A model generated the notes under the pieces. It worked only from the letters and a program-made list of their open reading frames with translations, made no database searches and had not been told where the DNA came from. Below, piece after piece: positions 107 to 6,461 of a stretch of DNA of 64,000 bases. Numbering within the stretch: the first letter of the stretch is position 1; each line of letters starts with the position of its first letter. The stretch is from assembly GCA_963817915.1 (NCBI GenBank), contig CAWFQL010000012.1:1-64000 (forward strand), in the 5' to 3' direction. The DNA is from an uncultured candidate division Zixibacteria bacterium (GTDB lineage Bacteria; Zixibacteria; MSB-5A5; UBA10806). Made by a program: the position numbers and the translations under genes.

Positions 107-134
107 TAAAGAGTTTTTCCCACCAAAATAATAA

Positions 135-168
135 CGGTCGGGCGAGGCCGCCCGACCGCAATAGTTAT
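135..168. repeat. GC-rich hairpin, copy 1 of a 31-bp direct repeat (REP-like element or terminator)
   Basis: CGGTCGGGCG-AGGC-CGCCCGACCG is a perfect 10-bp stem; 138-168 matches 2460-2490 at 27/31 positions. Confidence 0.8.
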
Positions 169-212: not shown

Positions 213-1853
213 CTAAAACTTGTACGCTTTCCAGAAAGTATCAAGCCAACGAACCGATTCTGATGTAAGTCTATGAGGATAAATAATCAGAAAAAGTACA
301 AATAAGTGTGGGTGCTTTTTTAATAATGCAGGAATACCTTGGCCGGAAGATTCATTTGCTTCTTCCTTGAGTTGTTCCCAATTTTTTGTTCTTTGAGGCC
401 ACGCACTGATATTCTCGGCTCCATCGCTATTTCGCCAGAGATAGGTTCTCCAAGGATAATCGAGTTTTACAGAGCTATTCATTACCCTAGTATAATCCGC
501 CCAAATCATTTTTGCATTTAGTTTCCAATTTCTTCGAACAAATAGATGCATTAAGGCTTCAGAAGCAAAAGATTGCCCGGCAAAATTATCATCTATCAGG
601 CATTTAGGGTCGCCACTCATTGAAAGCAAGACCGATTCAGCATCATAATAAAAATTAGGTATTGCACTATTAGAATCAAAACGATTCAATTTGAGGAGAT
701 CCTCCAAGTTCTTGGCGAGCCAAAAATCCGGCTTTAATGTGCCATCTACTCTTCTTAGAAGCCAATATATGGTAATTAGTTGAGGAACGGCTCCTTCTCC
801 TGAAAGCTGAATTCTTGTATAGTTTTCTTTAATATATTCTTTACAAAATGGGATTAAGTCATCTTGTCTTTTATCTTTATATAGACACCATAGGGCATAT
901 AGGCTACATATTGATTCTAAAAGTGTTACTTTAGTGCGATGAACATAAATTTCCGTTAAAGCTACTCCTTCGTAATTGTCCGGCTCTTGTCTTATTTCAA
1001 CCACTAATTGTTGTAGAAGAAGAAAGATCCAATCTTCTATAAGTGTAACAAATTCCTCCCAATATTTCTCAGGGATATTATTCTTTTCTATCACGGCAAA
1101 AATTGACGACAAATATATTGTCCAAGCCGTGATTTCGGCAAAATAGTTGTTTTTTTTAGTAAAAGATGCCATGGATAGGGAATTGATTAGCGCTAGACTT
1201 GTAATTGTTCGCGAAAATTCTCTAATTTTAGGCTTTTTATTATTTGATATATACGGCAAGCAACTGATATTAAGTTTTGCGAAACGTTCCTTAGGCAAAA
1301 AGGCGCCGCCATCTTCGAGATAGAGTTCAAGTAATAGTCTGAATTCCTCGAGCTCTTGTGGAATCAAATTACCAACCATTTGATTAGAGATATCCAAAAG
1401 CTCCCCTCTTAAAATGAGTTCGATTCTTCTTTCCGGCAATCCCTGCTCTTCGAATCCCTCATTTGTTTTTGCTAGAAGCTCTGATGCTTCTTCTTCAATC
1501 TCGCCATTAAGAACCAAGTAGGATTTATGCCATTTTTTTGCTTTTATTGCAGGATGATTGATTTTGGCGGATACCAATTCTTGCAACTGTGGAAATATTT
1601 CTCGCAGCTTCTCCAAAGATAATTTTTTTCCATTAACCCCTTTAAGTTGATAAGCATGTACCTGTCCCAATTTATCAACTGCAATTATATCTTTGCCGAA
1701 CTCAATTGGTGAATGTCGAGTGCTATGAATAATTCTTTTTCCCTGATGTACAAGCATTTGCGTAAAAGGTATTTGATATGACCTCTCACTTGCACTATCC
1801 AACCAATTTTCTAGAAGCCTCTCTATCACGCCATTCCTGCCTTTTTCTTTCAA
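213..1853 (-). CDS. Putative Mrr-like/PD-(D/E)xK restriction-endonuclease-fold protein with a long helical C-terminal region
   Basis: 546-aa ORF; N-terminal E-FGKDIIA-x9-AYQLK fits the D...(Q/E)xK nuclease motif; AT-rich. True start may be GTG at 1829 (VIERLLENWL). Confidence 0.6.
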   Translation of the reverse strand: MKEKGRNGVIERLLENWLDSASERSYQIPFTQMLVHQGKRIIHSTRHSPIEFGKDIIAVDKLGQVHAYQLKGVNGKKLSLEKLREIFPQLQELVSAKINHPAIKAKKWHKSYLVLNGEIEEEASELLAKTNEGFEEQGLPERRIELILRGELLDISNQMVGNLIPQELEEFRLLLELYLEDGGAFLPKERFAKLNISCLPYISNNKKPKIREFSRTITSLALINSLSMASFTKKNNYFAEITAWTIYLSSIFAVIEKNNIPEKYWEEFVTLIEDWIFLLLQQLVVEIRQEPDNYEGVALTEIYVHRTKVTLLESICSLYALWCLYKDKRQDDLIPFCKEYIKENYTRIQLSGEGAVPQLITIYWLLRRVDGTLKPDFWLAKNLEDLLKLNRFDSNSAIPNFYYDAESVLLSMSGDPKCLIDDNFAGQSFASEALMHLFVRRNWKLNAKMIWADYTRVMNSSVKLDYPWRTYLWRNSDGAENISAWPQRTKNWEQLKEEANESSGQGIPALLKKHPHLFVLFLIIYPHRLTSESVRWLDTFWKAYKF

Positions 1854-2388
1854 TTAATTCGTCATACCGTTTCTTGTATAACGGATCTTTCTCGATATCC
1901 GTTAGGACTGCTTTTGCCCTTTGTTCCATTTGCGGCGGGAAGACGAATTGGGGATGATCAAACCCTCCATCCTCATGAAAATCAAATTGAATCCCTTCAA
2001 GAGCCTTAAAAAATATTTCTGCGTCAAAAGGCCTTCCATCATTGTCCGTGACTTGGCCGGTCTGCGTCGTTATTTTAATAAATTCCTCAATAACGATTTT
2101 TGATTGTTGAAGGGCCTTATCTTTCGCCATTTGATCTACGTAATCTAGCGCTTTATTAAAGTTACCCGATTTTACATCTTCATTTAGTATCTTGACTTCT
2201 CCGGATATTTTTTTTATATCGGTCTTTATTATTGTTCCATCTTCCATCTTTGATACTATTTGTTTTCCTTCGAAAATCCTATACTTTTTAAAATTAAATG
2301 CACCTAAATATCGTCCTGATACGTTTTCGAATCTTTTAAGTAATATTTCCATTATTACATTGCGGCATTTCACATAATCTGGAAGCAT
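1795..2388 (-). CDS. Hypothetical protein, possibly a truncated HK97 capsid-like fold
   Basis: 197-aa ORF with AAAGGAG RBS upstream; its 3' end overlaps the nuclease gene. The fold call rests on by-eye pattern only. Confidence 0.6.
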   Translation of the reverse strand: MLPDYVKCRNVIMEILLKRFENVSGRYLGAFNFKKYRIFEGKQIVSKMEDGTIIKTDIKKISGEVKILNEDVKSGNFNKALDYVDQMAKDKALQQSKIVIEEFIKITTQTGQVTDNDGRPFDAEIFFKALEGIQFDFHEDGGFDHPQFVFPPQMEQRAKAVLTDIEKDPLYKKRYDELIERKRQEWRDREASRKLVG

Positions 2389-2459
2389 TGATTAATCTCC
2401 TTTATAAGACCAATCGGATTTTGTTATTGTCCGGCCCGCATCTGGCAAAAAGGCCATAA

Positions 2460-2490
2460 TCGGGTGAGGCCACCCGACCGCACCAGTTAT
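2460..2490. repeat. Copy 2 of the 31-bp hairpin direct repeat
   Basis: TCGGGTG-AGGC-CACCCGA-CCGCACCAGTTAT; carries a compensatory C-G to T-A stem change relative to copy 1. Confidence 0.8.
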
Positions 2491-2504
2491 TTACATTACC
2501 AATA

Positions 2505-5500
2505 TTATTTCAACAGCACCATCTTGATATTACTGGTTTTGTCGGCGGCGATTAGCTTGGCGAAATAAATACCAGTTGTGGCGTCGATACCGGCTTCGTT
2601 TTTGCCATCCCAGACAATTTCATGATACCCGGCAGGTTTGTCCTGATCTATAAGCAGGCGCACTGAACGGCCAAGGATATCGTAAATACGAATACTCACA
2701 TGCGACTGCGCCGGTAGACCGAATTTGATCGTTGTCGATGGATTGAAGGGATTGGGGTAATTCTGGAATAGCGAGTATTCTTGAGGTAATTGGATTTTGT
2801 TATCATCAACTCCAGTCATACCTAAGAAGCTGCGCAAGATAGTCTCGAAATTAGTGTGCATTGCGGCAAAATCCAGCCTGTAGGGGCGACAGCCGAGATA
2901 CATCAAATTGCCCGAATTAGCAGGATGTGCCCAGAAGCCGGCAACCCATTCAGGATAGCTGTCCGCTCGGTAAAGAACGGAGACAGCTGAAGTATCTACC
3001 TGCACCAGATCCGTAAATGATTGCGAGGAGGTTCTATTTATATTCGTCAGCAATGCATTCTGTGAAACTAAGGTTGTGAAATTGACCCCGGTATTAAATG
3101 ATGTCACATGACCATACTCCATAAGGCCAGGGGATAAAAATGATTGGCCCATTCGACAAACAAGTACAAGATTTCCACCGCTATTGAGATAATTCAGGAG
3201 TTCGTCTTGCACGAGCTGATATTTTTCAAGATCGCCTCCATAGGCATTTCCAACCCATATAATTGTCGCAAAGGGATTGAAATCGGTTGGGCTTATTGCG
3301 CCATCGCCGATGACCGTCTCCGGATAAGGCCGCGATTCAGGCGAAACCTCGAAAAGATCCCAAAGGCTGTAGCCAAGAGTACCCGTGAAAGCCCGGGCGT
3401 TATACATGTCATATACTTGTGGGTTGTATGTAGTCCAATCAACTCCGTTAACAATCAATATTCCTGAACGCTGTTCGGGCGAAACAGGAAATGCGTATAA
3501 TGTATCAGTCGAGTAGCTTTCAGGGCCATAGATACTTAGTGCGGTCATGGAATAGTAATAGCCATGCCCATTTTCTACGCTATTATCGGAAAAAGTAGTC
3601 AAGTTTGCAGGAATTGTATCAATGACTATAAAGCTGTCGGAATCTAATTTTCGATATATTTTTAGACCGGCGAGATCGGTTGTTCCCGTGGAATCCCAGG
3701 AAAGTCTGACAAATCCATCGCCTGCCTCAACCTGGAAACCTGTGAGTGCCGGAGGTCTGCCACCCAGCTCGCTAACCTCACACGAAAATCTCCCCTCTTG
3801 TCCGGCAAAATCGACGCAAGTGAGTTTATAACGATAGGTTGAACCGGGGGAAATATCTGTATCGTTAAATTGGGTTGCGTCACCACTTAATATGAAAAGC
3901 AAATTATAGGATCCATCATCCCTTAACCTGTAGATTTTGATTGTATTAACATCGTTTTCATCGATTCGATCCCAGGTCAATTGAAGATTAGCCGAACCTA
4001 ATGATCTGACCGCCAAATGCCAGGGCGGCAATGGCGCTGGGTTTTCGTAAAATGTACATCCGAATTCATCCCTCAGGACATTGGTAATTGTAGTTTGAAC
4101 ATCATTGTGAGGCATAAAATGCAGATCGAAATTGAAAAGAGATGTTTTAGAAACGCCTCCCGGACGATAAATTATTCCAATCGGTTTTCTGTAACCAGGC
4201 GGTTCCATTCCATCAACATTTAGCCCCATGAGAAAAAGTGAATCTGCTCCCGGTCTTAAAGTATTTATGAATGAAGCGCATCCGCGTTGATTAGGGTTTA
4301 AGGCTACGTCGATTTTCATTGAATCGGGATAACCTGAATGAGTCCCGATCGCCCAAGTAAAATCGTTAGACGAATCCCAGGATGTGGTAGTATCCGGACC
4401 GGTATTAATACCTAGCCATTCATAATCGAAGTCACCCGGCATTGGCGGATTGGTATTAAAGACGTATGATAGAATTTGAGATCCTACTGCAAGCAGGTGG
4501 CCATTTGCTTGAAGATATGTTCGCAATGATCCGCCGCCTATCGCCCCGACATCAAACCACCAATGATAGTTAGGGTCCGCTTGACAATTGGCATCAGCAT
4601 CGGAGGCAAACAAAACCGCCTGATAATTAGATAATACTTCCGCGCTCGGCATACCCTGGAAATCAAGTTTCCAAATATCGTAATCGAAATTATAGACCCC
4701 CCAGCGCTGGTAGAATCTGGTAACATCTCTATTTTCTTTGGCAGTGCCATTCGGATTCATTTCATATCCGTCATCAATTAATAACACGCGGCCATTTCCA
4801 CTGCCATTGGGGATTGCCTGTACTTCGCCAGTATAGGGCGATTCAACTCCCCATTTCACGGTAGTCGCTACATAAAAGTACGGTTGAGCCGGATTGAGTC
4901 CGTAATCCGTAAATGAGCTATCAGGATGTGCCCTTTCCGCAATTTGCGCATATGGGCCGCCGGAAACATTACTTCTATAGATTCTGTACGCTGTGGCATT
5001 TTCAACTGTTGACCAGCTAAGCGCGATAGATTGATTTCCCGGAATTGCTCGAAAATCCGATGGCGGCGGCGGTAAAGTCGATACCATTACGATATCCGAT
5101 GGAATACTTTCAACGCCTTCCGAATCAACAGAAGTCACATAGATATAATAAAGATCGCGAACGGCAGGAGTATAAAGATAATAGTTAGTATCAATTGGAA
5201 CTTGGTTTAGCCATTGGAATGGACCTCCTGGCTCTGTAGCAGAGTAAATAAAATATCCGGATACATCGTCATCGCCGGTATTCGCGTCCCAATTCAATTC
5301 AATATTTTGATCGAGCACGTTTGCGCGCAGATTCTGGGGTGGCTCAGGCGCCAGATTATGATAGACAAAATCATTTAGAAAAAGCATGTGGGCATTATCA
5401 AGGTTAGACCTTAATCCGGTCAGTCCATTGCCAATCCCCAGCGCGAAAACTACTCGAATCGAATCATTAGCACCAATTGCGAAAGGTCCAGTCTTCTGCA

Positions 5501-6461
5501 GAAAACGGAAATCATGCGGAGATGGCGGATCAGGTAGCCATTGTCCATCGCTGATTCTTTGAAAATACTCTGAATCGGAGGCAGGGTCGGAATTCCAATC
5601 CCACCAGCCGTGGCCCGACTGAATCGAATGGTCAGATTCTCCAACTCTTGGAGGGCAATAAAGCAACCTGCTGCCGATATATCCGCGAGACTCTTTCGGG
5701 ATTTTATTTCCACCCTCGTCATCACCGGGCACAGTCGGGTTGTCGCCGTCGTACATATAGGAAATGTATTCCCTGTTAATATCATCTTTTAAATATCCAA
5801 CCAAATCGTCTCTGGAGTAACTTTGATAGCCGGAACCGCCCTCGGCTGCCGAGACATCACAATCGGCATGCAATGCCACATAAACCGAATCGAGCGGAGT
5901 CGAATTGAGATTGACTATCCAATATTGGTAAATAATAAAATCATTGGCATCATGTTCAGACCAGGCATAGGTATTTTGATGAACTGCAACATTAATGCGA
6001 TATTCTGGCGGCACCAGTTCGGATTGATCCGATATATAGAAATGTGTATCGTAATCTGATAATGATTGTGGTGGTAGAGTTTCGTCAACTCCCGGGGAGG
6101 TATCGGTAGAAAGATGAACTATTCGACCATGATATCCGATCCGCAATGAGCCAAGATACAGGTAATCATTGATGGCCGCATAATCCTGGGGTGTATTCCA
6201 GCGCATCGACCCATGTTCAAGAATATCATCACCAAGCATTATCGTCCAATTATTCGTGCCAGTTGCCCGCTCGACAGTTGAATTGGATATATATTGGGTT
6301 AAAGCTCCTACATTACAGACTTTCCAATCGAATACGGCCGGGAGAACATTATCGCCGTTGTCGGGCACTGACAGCAGCGCCGGGTTCTTAGCGCCATAAC
6401 TAATATTGGCCGCCAAAATACAGACAACCGATATGAGCCATATTTTTCTGGTTATCGCCAT
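2505..6461 (-). CDS. Large secreted protein with fibronectin type III repeats and C-terminal T9SS-type-A/FlgD-like sorting domain
   Basis: Signal peptide; four FN3-like repeats (PPQNL..LNW, PPPSDF..LSW, PPWHL..LTW, PPALTG..LSW); QNYPNPFNP...GIYFAKL..KMVLLK. Confidence 0.8.
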   Translation of the reverse strand: MAITRKIWLISVVCILAANISYGAKNPALLSVPDNGDNVLPAVFDWKVCNVGALTQYISNSTVERATGTNNWTIMLGDDILEHGSMRWNTPQDYAAINDYLYLGSLRIGYHGRIVHLSTDTSPGVDETLPPQSLSDYDTHFYISDQSELVPPEYRINVAVHQNTYAWSEHDANDFIIYQYWIVNLNSTPLDSVYVALHADCDVSAAEGGSGYQSYSRDDLVGYLKDDINREYISYMYDGDNPTVPGDDEGGNKIPKESRGYIGSRLLYCPPRVGESDHSIQSGHGWWDWNSDPASDSEYFQRISDGQWLPDPPSPHDFRFLQKTGPFAIGANDSIRVVFALGIGNGLTGLRSNLDNAHMLFLNDFVYHNLAPEPPQNLRANVLDQNIELNWDANTGDDDVSGYFIYSATEPGGPFQWLNQVPIDTNYYLYTPAVRDLYYIYVTSVDSEGVESIPSDIVMVSTLPPPPSDFRAIPGNQSIALSWSTVENATAYRIYRSNVSGGPYAQIAERAHPDSSFTDYGLNPAQPYFYVATTVKWGVESPYTGEVQAIPNGSGNGRVLLIDDGYEMNPNGTAKENRDVTRFYQRWGVYNFDYDIWKLDFQGMPSAEVLSNYQAVLFASDADANCQADPNYHWWFDVGAIGGGSLRTYLQANGHLLAVGSQILSYVFNTNPPMPGDFDYEWLGINTGPDTTTSWDSSNDFTWAIGTHSGYPDSMKIDVALNPNQRGCASFINTLRPGADSLFLMGLNVDGMEPPGYRKPIGIIYRPGGVSKTSLFNFDLHFMPHNDVQTTITNVLRDEFGCTFYENPAPLPPWHLAVRSLGSANLQLTWDRIDENDVNTIKIYRLRDDGSYNLLFILSGDATQFNDTDISPGSTYRYKLTCVDFAGQEGRFSCEVSELGGRPPALTGFQVEAGDGFVRLSWDSTGTTDLAGLKIYRKLDSDSFIVIDTIPANLTTFSDNSVENGHGYYYSMTALSIYGPESYSTDTLYAFPVSPEQRSGILIVNGVDWTTYNPQVYDMYNARAFTGTLGYSLWDLFEVSPESRPYPETVIGDGAISPTDFNPFATIIWVGNAYGGDLEKYQLVQDELLNYLNSGGNLVLVCRMGQSFLSPGLMEYGHVTSFNTGVNFTTLVSQNALLTNINRTSSQSFTDLVQVDTSAVSVLYRADSYPEWVAGFWAHPANSGNLMYLGCRPYRLDFAAMHTNFETILRSFLGMTGVDDNKIQLPQEYSLFQNYPNPFNPSTTIKFGLPAQSHVSIRIYDILGRSVRLLIDQDKPAGYHEIVWDGKNEAGIDATTGIYFAKLIAADKTSNIKMVLLK

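Follow-up and report, generated by a model that had tools for sequence, protein, structure and literature searches.

A two-gene cassette at the start of a Zixibacteria contig

We analysed a stretch of 64,000 nucleotides (nt) from an uncultured candidate division Zixibacteria bacterium (assembly GCA_963817915.1, contig CAWFQL010000012.1, positions 1 to 64,000), referred to here as the window. Two overlapping open reading frames (ORFs) on the minus strand fill positions 213-2388 of the window. The upstream gene encodes a small protein whose predicted outline is that of a phage capsid protein's front half, and the downstream gene encodes a large protein with a predicted nuclease head. The chances seem to us evenly balanced that the pair is a two-gene anti-phage conflict module, in which the small protein descends from the first half of a capsid protein of the HK97 fold and the large protein is the effector.

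The coordinates of the cassette and its flanking features are collected in Table 1. The large ORF remains open beyond its GTG codon as far as a TTG codon, giving alternative products of 538 and 546 residues (aa), and the 538-aa form is an entry (P0001) in a public protein collection. Counted from these two starts, the overlap with the small gene is 35 nt or 59 nt. The 35-nt overlap is likely to be the real one here, because related loci overlap by either 35 nt (45/59) or 44 nt (14/59). A purine-rich AGGA lies 5 nt upstream of the GTG, within the coding sequence of the small gene, and suggests that the two genes are translationally coupled. A simple scan upstream of the small gene found no sigma-70-like promoter. 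The cassette is AT-rich, with a GC fraction of 0.33-0.39 over positions 600-2400 against 0.44-0.48 over positions 2400-6200, where the adjacent gene for a 1318-aa protein lies. An earlier reading of the bare letters of this DNA (the original prediction) had described an AT-rich, two-gene cassette with an overlap of 35-59 nt, and the description holds on each of these points.

Table 1. Coordinates of the cassette and of the features that flank it in the window.
Feature	Position	Strand	Remarks
Left neighbour, C-terminal fragment	ends at 106	+	34 aa
Terminator-like hairpin	134..159	-	11-bp stem, 9 GC pairs, T-rich tail; 3' of large gene (terminator scan)
Large gene, 538 aa from GTG 1829	213..1829	-	Stop codon 213-215
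Large ORF from TTG 1853	213..1853	-	546 aa
Predicted all-helical C-terminal domain	216..1364	-	~380 aa, aa 156-538
Predicted PD-(D/E)xK nuclease domain, N-terminal	1365..1829	-	aa 1-155; FokI/Mrr-like, D47...Q61-x-K63
Two-gene overlap	1795..1829	-	35 nt; large gene's GTG inside small gene's W-R-D codons
Small gene, 197 aa	1795..2388	-	ATG start; ORF list
AGGA motif	1835..1838	-	Within small gene's coding sequence
AAGGAG Shine-Dalgarno-like motif	2397..2402	-	8 nt upstream of small gene's ATG; read from sequence
Second copy of flanking hairpin	2460..2481	-
Gene for 1318-aa protein	2505..6461	-	Adjoins cassette

The small and large genes form a conserved pair

Neither protein of the window matches a family in Pfam (E up to 10), NCBIfam or PADLOC (E up to 1), and their matches to the PHROGs are at noise level only. 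Single-protein searches of both against PDB sequences gave nothing meaningful, and the family profiles likewise. The homologues are labelled 'hypothetical protein' in their source records. When 1.84 billion representatives were scanned exhaustively with HMMER, 1132 relatives of the small protein had E-values of 1e-3 or lower, and 611 had values of 1e-10 or lower. Among the 150 relatives listed, nearly all are 190-203 aa long and match from end to end. These lengths and matches point to a complete, widespread family of about 197 aa and away from a gene fragment. The word 'truncated', as the original prediction applied it to this protein, does not fit in the sense of a broken gene, given a full-length family with 1132 representatives.

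A scan of one genome per species yielded 60 loci whose record titles span many phyla, and the small gene is directly upstream of the large gene in 59 of them, so that the pairing proposed from the single locus is conserved. The exception (L024, Desulfovirgula thermocuniculi, 1-560) has an intact large gene and a small gene reduced to its last 13 codons, and is a decayed or rearranged copy of the pair. At the other 59 loci the large gene starts with GTG (32), ATG (22) or TTG (5), preceded by purine-rich tracts resembling Shine-Dalgarno sequences. Because the genes overlap by 35 or 44 nt, the conservation of the small protein's C-terminus is in part a dual-coding constraint. One genome from the phylum of the window has a small gene broken up among three frames (L001 5432-6032; G073:C6:124522-125110), through either frameshift decay or assembly errors.

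The large protein joins a predicted nuclease to a helical domain

The AlphaFold2 (AF2) model of the large protein is of high confidence, with a predicted local distance difference test score (pLDDT) of 92.8 and a predicted template modelling score (pTM) of 0.92. Its N-terminal region is predicted to be a FokI/Mrr-like PD-(D/E)xK nuclease with the alpha/beta core of restriction endonucleases, and the structural match thus agrees with the Mrr-like nuclease partner first suggested for the pair. In the numbering of the 538-aa form, D47, Q61, L62 and K63 are invariant across 116 aligned homologues, as are E15, H35, H39, E43 and G45. The D...QxK motif read at the N-terminus in the original prediction is therefore a fixed feature of the family, and its residues D47, Q61 and K63 fall at the start of, or within, predicted strands 48-51 and 57-63. 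The head matches none of the curated models for such domains (Mrr_cat and the like) in Pfam at E up to 10 or in NCBIfam. The remaining C-terminal domain is predicted to be entirely helical, with no convincing known fold, and gave no usable match in the ESM Atlas.

The small protein resembles the front half of an HK97-fold capsid protein

We aligned 124 members of the small-protein family (alignment A1). E40 and G41 are invariant in A1, and the N-terminal MLPD, G51, G111, F137, G141 and the C-terminal K..W..RE..R.LV are nearly so. The AF2 model built on A1 (pLDDT 93, pTM 0.78) predicts an N-terminal helix (residues 6-31), a hairpin (43-57, with strands 43-47 and 53-57) and a 34-residue helix (77-110), followed by a conserved loop of GNVVD type at about 111-116, short helices and two C-terminal helices (152-196). 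Apart from the two 5-residue strands of the hairpin, the only beta structure in the model consists of isolated bridges. An N-arm, an E-loop hairpin and a long spine helix are predicted in canonical HK97 order and superpose on solved members of the fold. A complete A-domain, with its central sheet between two helices, and the P-domain sheet are not present in the model. Lacking the greater part of both sheets, the small protein would be at most a half-fold derivative, and falls short of full membership of the HK97 fold.

Structural searches with the model lead to capsid proteins at modest significance. The original prediction had proposed a Foldseek comparison with capsids and encapsulins. In the PDB an encapsulin ranks first (E 0.63, probability 0.89), T7, JBD30 and another encapsulin are also listed, and no match reaches E 1e-3 or better. 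The top two matches in BFVD are both major capsid proteins (E 0.076 and 0.096). The nearest named clusters in the ESM Atlas are all capsid families (score 0.83-0.84, graded by the tool as a lead only).

A link at the level of sequence came from scanning the 124 members singly against Pfam and PHROG. Six of the 124 match Pfam Phage_capsid_4 (best E 5.2e-4), and several match PHROG 'major head protein' families. Residues 38-159 of P0218 align with positions 63-180 of the 282 in phrog_544 (E 3.5e-6), residues 52-157 of P0195 with positions 94-202 of the 300 in phrog_1650 (E 1.7e-5), and residues 47-134 of P0261 with positions 116-202 of the 318 in phrog_2522 (E 0.0033). All three alignments are collinear and cover the stretch from the hairpin to the early A-domain, and the best two E-values remain below 0.01 after multiplication by the 124 queries. 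A search for phrog_544 itself in 285 genomes and 14 control genomes did not find it.

The module could be one of defence or conflict and its capsid likeness nevertheless convergent, with helix, hairpin and long helix superposing by chance and the small protein being an unrelated adaptor. We regard this as improbable, as four independent kinds of evidence agree on the capsid class with collinear alignments. Two structure aligners on three libraries point to capsids, together with language-model features; single members match the hidden Markov models (HMMs) of four PHROG head-protein families and one Pfam capsid family; and structural alignments span 146-167 residues for capsid rows and at most 90 for unrelated ones. 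The evidence for a capsid fold is coherent and of middling strength, and common descent of the small protein with an HK97-fold protein seems to us probable. The half-capsid order of HK97 elements that the original prediction had read from the letters thus stands in part: N-arm, E-loop, spine and early A-domain appear in the model, and some members match head profiles. Direct comparison with one capsid family went the other way, as described below.

A separate match concerns the C-terminal helix (residues ~157-195), which in 20 of the 124 members resembles phrog_804, a 72-aa phage family with no assigned function (best E 1.7e-4). For the window's own protein this match is weak (E 0.062), and it may reflect only the composition of the helix.

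A sister family carries a caspase in place of the nuclease

A tblastn search of phage records with P0218 matched record MT835554.1 (E 4e-4). A 206-aa ORF in this record is a small-family homologue (hhalign against A1: probability 98.4%, E 4e-15) and overlaps by 4 nt with the ORF downstream of it, which encodes 636 aa and has a Peptidase_C14 caspase domain at residues 8-229 (E 1.5e-8). At least 96 relatives of the 636-aa protein occur in Pseudomonas, Cupriavidus and Mesorhizobium, annotated as 'caspase family protein'. H84 and C133 are invariant in this caspase-type family, and we take them to be the catalytic dyad. Its C-terminal part, of ~370 residues, is a homologue of the nuclease type's helical domain (hhalign comparison of A2 and A5: probability 95.9%, E 5.4e-9, 353 columns).

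The pairing with the small gene extends to the caspase type. A Sulfitobacter plasmid carries the small gene directly upstream of the caspase-type gene (A1 HMM, E 1.2e-22), and the same arrangement is found in 66 of 67 metagenome loci with at least 450 nt of upstream sequence. Eight more loci have too little upstream sequence, and three of these eight hold a partial small gene. A tree of the small protein was built on 97 rows, which remained of 119 once duplicates and rows exceeding 60 gaps had been removed. All 41 caspase-type rows group in a single pure clade with a support of 0.97, and a single change of label accounts for all 97 rows. The enzymatic head is exchangeable between nuclease and caspase, with the helical domain and the small protein kept constant. 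This exchange, the feature of the module that tells most, is newly found here and was absent from the original prediction. When the caspase type was run through PADLOC, a generic 'caspase' model matched the head only, and the small protein had no match.

The neighbours of 25 caspase-type loci mostly lack a Pfam match. A few of these loci adjoin domains of mobile elements or conflict systems (integrase, TrbL, DUF927, AAA_15/23, Fic and SLOG). Among the caspase-type copies, a 350-kb plasmid carries one, and a record deposited as phage holds another. The latter record (L071, MT835554.1 12188-20571) comes from a faecal sample and is labelled an unverified bacteriophage; its caspase-type protein shows 100% identity to a chromosomal protein of Pseudomonas recorded as multispecies. 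The pair there adjoins a Metallophos gene that matches the PADLOC candidate PDC-S10 (E 2.9e-10), and an HTH (helix-turn-helix) repressor-like gene and a DUF6957 gene are also present. L071 may be a prophage or bacterial DNA.

Gene order and structure bear on a further explanation, a caged-effector or toxin-antitoxin-like module in which the small protein is an inhibitor or an encapsulin-like facet or cage. The trigger would then be generic, such as host shut-off or loss of a labile small protein, and independent of capsids. A small upstream and a large downstream gene that appear to be coupled are the usual layout of antitoxin and toxin, encapsulins are the closest structural matches of the small protein, and the N-terminal helix region of encapsulins binds cargo. 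K183 and E191 in the C-terminal helix are conserved with both effector types, including the caspase type with its 4-nt overlap (read in L071). Truncated HK97 proteins paired with enzymes are also known, as the Family 4 A-domain encapsulins (PMC8346489). A closed shell, in turn, is unlikely, because the model covers only half the fold and has hardly any beta-sheet. A highly conserved, structured protein of 197 aa is large for a labile antitoxin, and no antitoxin-type DNA-binding family recurs among the members (PhdYeFM in 1/124). On balance we consider a caged or toxin-antitoxin-like module unlikely.

Distribution and genomic neighbourhood

The pair is scarce among close relatives of its host. 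The large-protein profile (A2) matches 2 of 41 relatives' genomes, with no match in the 13 others that belong to the same family. The small-protein profile from A1 has 5 true matches in 285 genomes of the phylum, and matches 1 of 400 genomes in a class-level sample centred on a carrier. A further weak A1 match, in G219, was discarded as it lies within a coiled-coil ORF. The module is rare, patchily distributed and present in many phyla.

Neighbourhoods were scanned over the two nearest genes on each side at 59 loci (213 proteins). By our own classification and with no matched background, a defence-type domain is present at 18 of the 59 loci, and a defence or mobile-element domain at ~25. These counts support the suggestion that the pair sits in defence islands. 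Restriction-modification genes are among these neighbours: Type I HsdR with YgjP and Schlafen (L006), Type ISP systems (L009, L028), a Type III system (L027), and an Eco57I/MmeI-like methylase with GmrSD (L022). Other loci adjoin Cap15 of CBASS (L010, L019), SIR2 with HerA and an integrase (L020), ApeA (L031), Abi_alpha (L042), AbiJ with DUF4365 (L048), NACHT (L056), HEPN (L059), PIN with REase-ARP (L041), or AAA_21/15 with a resolvase (L023). Integrases and transposases are the neighbours at L011, L012, L025 and L049. In two genomes (Alphaproteobacteria; Neorhizobium), uvrB adjoins the pair on opposite sides (L007 3189-5396 and L043 7722-10670), possibly marking a recurrent insertion spot.

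Ordinary neighbours in the window and UvrB beside the pair at two loci would also suit a housekeeping role outside conflict, in DNA repair or as a small nanocompartment. Such a role is most improbable in our judgement: the pair occurs in only about 0.25-2% of sampled genomes, is patchy even among close relatives, has an exchangeable nuclease or caspase head and lies in a low-GC cassette.

At the thresholds used, no portal, terminase, prohead-protease or cargo gene was found among 213 + 88 neighbour proteins at related loci, a scan outside which the window's own further neighbours lie. The original prediction had remarked on the lack of portal, protease and terminase genes nearby, and the related loci bear this out. 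The pair could also be a selfish element or satellite whose capsid fragment disturbs the head assembly of a helper or competitor for the element's own benefit. Integrases, transposases, a resolvase and plasmid genes do adjoin some loci, and caspase-type copies are found on the 350-kb plasmid and in the phage-deposited record. In 59 + 67 loci, however, the pair has no constant companion such as an integrase, primase or packaging gene, and redirection of capsid size needs neither a nuclease nor a caspase effector. We rate this explanation as very unlikely.

Surroundings of the cassette in the window

The start of the window is the end of the contig, and the left neighbour of the cassette is cut to the C-terminal fragment given in Table 1. 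The fragment is presumably tsaD-like; its 34 residues matched no PDB sequence. A 22-nt GC-rich hairpin flanks the cassette on both sides, and the two copies differ by a compensatory pair (GGGCG/CGCCC and GGGTG/CACCC). Direct repeats of an att site were considered and rejected, since the genome holds 21 copies of the hairpin at up to 2 mismatches and none of a control pattern. The hairpin belongs to a genome-wide repeat family of the host, either like REP (repetitive extragenic palindromic) elements or of terminators.

The last ~105 residues of the adjacent 1318-aa protein match 48 large proteins in the same genome, and the same C-terminus has 24-72 matches in each of 13 other genomes of the family. 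It looks like a shared secretion or sorting domain, possibly of the type IX secretion kind. In two genomes of the same family, orthologues of the 1318-aa gene have no tsaD-like gene next to them, and comparison of these two genomes found no clean empty site. In one (G006, L065 3363-4370), a convergent 336-aa ORF lies beside the orthologue instead of the cassette, and from its letters we take it to be tyrosine integrase-like. In the other (G004, L064), a C-terminal remnant similar to that ORF lies beside the orthologue. The arrangement suggests that the site beside the 1318-aa gene is a variable spot.

A proposed mechanism of capsid-triggered defence

If the pair is an anti-phage module, its small subunit would be a capsid derivative that keeps the N-terminal helix, the E-loop-like hairpin, the spine helix and the glycine loop and has few of the strands that make up the A- and P-domain sheets. 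We propose that it would bind the helical domain and hold the effector silent. On infection, its capsid-like surfaces would engage assembly intermediates of the phage capsid (capsid protein, scaffold or portal), and clustering on a multivalent lattice would bring the heads together and dimerise them. FokI-type nucleases and caspases fire on dimerisation. DNA or protein would then be cut, and the infection would abort through destruction of the cell or of the phage DNA.

A more specific version is more doubtful, and we offer it tentatively. Bacteria may have domesticated this half of a capsid protein as an immune recognition subunit, which would co-assemble with the capsid intermediates of an invading phage, or dock onto them, by homotypic HK97 contacts. 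The growing lattice would then be a platform on which FokI-like or caspase heads meet and fire. If true, this version would amount to an immune system that mimics the virus shell at the molecular level and accepts interchangeable effectors.

Several observations weigh against an anti-phage module that senses capsids. The only link to capsid sensing is the predicted fold of the module's own subunit. The window's small protein itself matches no capsid family in Pfam or the PHROGs, and a search of PDB sequences with the A1 profile brought up no capsid. An hhalign comparison of A1 with two Phage_capsid_4 proteins and with an alignment of that family (A4) gave probabilities of 0.5-1.6%. A4 was built from two genome-derived genes and the relatives listed for them, and its diversity is low because these are all close, at 59% identity or more. 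The result lends no support to homology with Phage_capsid_4 in particular. The counts of defence neighbours have no matched background, and many loci, the window included, have ordinary neighbours. The nuclease type was not found in 72,556 plasmids and 50,697 phage records (tblastn with three protein versions) or in IMG/VR with one C-terminal motif pattern, and the small-family member P0195 had no match in the phage records. We infer that the module moves horizontally; for the nuclease type this mobility is deduced from patchiness, since no plasmid, phage or IMG/VR copy was found.

If the pair does protect against phage, it would represent a kind of defence in which part of a virus capsid serves as the sensor or adaptor. 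No description of a defence system with such a capsid-like subunit was found in Pfam, NCBIfam, PADLOC 2.0.0 or full-text searches of the open literature. Neither component matched PADLOC-DB 2.0.0, a search whose scope leaves out DefenseFinder and systems described after 2023, and on the PADLOC side the pair is thus unnamed, as the original prediction had supposed it might be. The exchange of nuclease and caspase on a common scaffold is a ready experimental contrast, and the module might serve as a programmable effector that is activated by proximity. Many Pseudomonas genomes already list the sister family, named merely 'caspase family protein', and a functional assignment would therefore affect many annotations.

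Comparison with known systems

The top structural matches of the small protein are HK97 major capsid proteins and Family 1 encapsulins (PDB 2e0z, 9i8e and 8rvj; T7 gp10, 3j7v; HK97 gp5, 1ohg). Over ~150 residues the model shares with them an N-terminal helix, hairpin, long spine helix, loop and helices in the same order. The small protein differs in its length (197 aa against about 260-400), in its lack of most of the A-domain sheet and of the P-domain strands, and in two extra C-terminal helices, and on this model it is unlikely to form a shell. Its partner is a nuclease or a caspase, and no head-assembly or cargo gene is present among the scanned neighbours.

The predicted nuclease head is closest to the FokI/Mrr-type PD-(D/E)xK domains of FokI (2fok), MspJI (4f0p), the Type ISP enzyme LlaBIII (4xqk), Shedu SduA (8ps4), Hachiman (8zue) and Hna (9yhn). 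Unlike these effectors, the large protein belongs to no Pfam, NCBIfam or PADLOC family, and its head sits on a helical domain that resembles no recognised fold, and is tied to a capsid-like partner gene.

The caspase head has counterparts in bacterial immunity, and the proteases associated with bacterial gasdermins are reportedly among them. Type IV Thoeris uses a caspase-like effector (PMC13069673). The sister family resembles these systems in its Peptidase_C14 head with invariant His and Cys. It differs in having a small capsid-like protein where they have a TIR, gasdermin or CRISPR partner, and its remaining ~380 aa form a helical domain specific to the family.

Phage head proteins are an established trigger for defence. 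Lit/Gol is a defence system that senses phage capsid protein. CapRel SJ46 (10.1101/2022.05.30.493996), which reportedly senses phage capsid protein too, shares with our proposal phage head proteins as the class of trigger and an abortive outcome. Neither of these sensors is known to be a capsid homologue; here it would be the host subunit that is the capsid-like part.

For a shortened HK97 protein of cells that is paired with an enzyme, the nearest parallel is the Family 4 'A-domain' encapsulins (DUF1884) described by Andreas and Giessen in 2021 (PMC8346489). These proteins are truncated to the A-domain, at ~100 aa, and are encoded downstream of metabolic enzymes (hydrogenase, OsmC, GAPDH and DeoC), mostly in hyperthermophilic archaea. 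The window's small protein has no Pfam match, DUF1884 included, at E up to 10, and DUF1884 is not among the best 25 of the 173 families matched by members. Both kinds are cellular, heavily truncated HK97-fold or HK97-like proteins in a conserved two-gene operon with an enzyme. The small protein differs in keeping the opposite half of the fold, in lying upstream of a nuclease or caspase, and in occurring across many bacterial phyla. With it, half-HK97 proteins would be known from cells in two independent cases, the A-domain encapsulins being the first, and the small protein, as the complementary half, would bear on how capsid proteins are exapted by cells.

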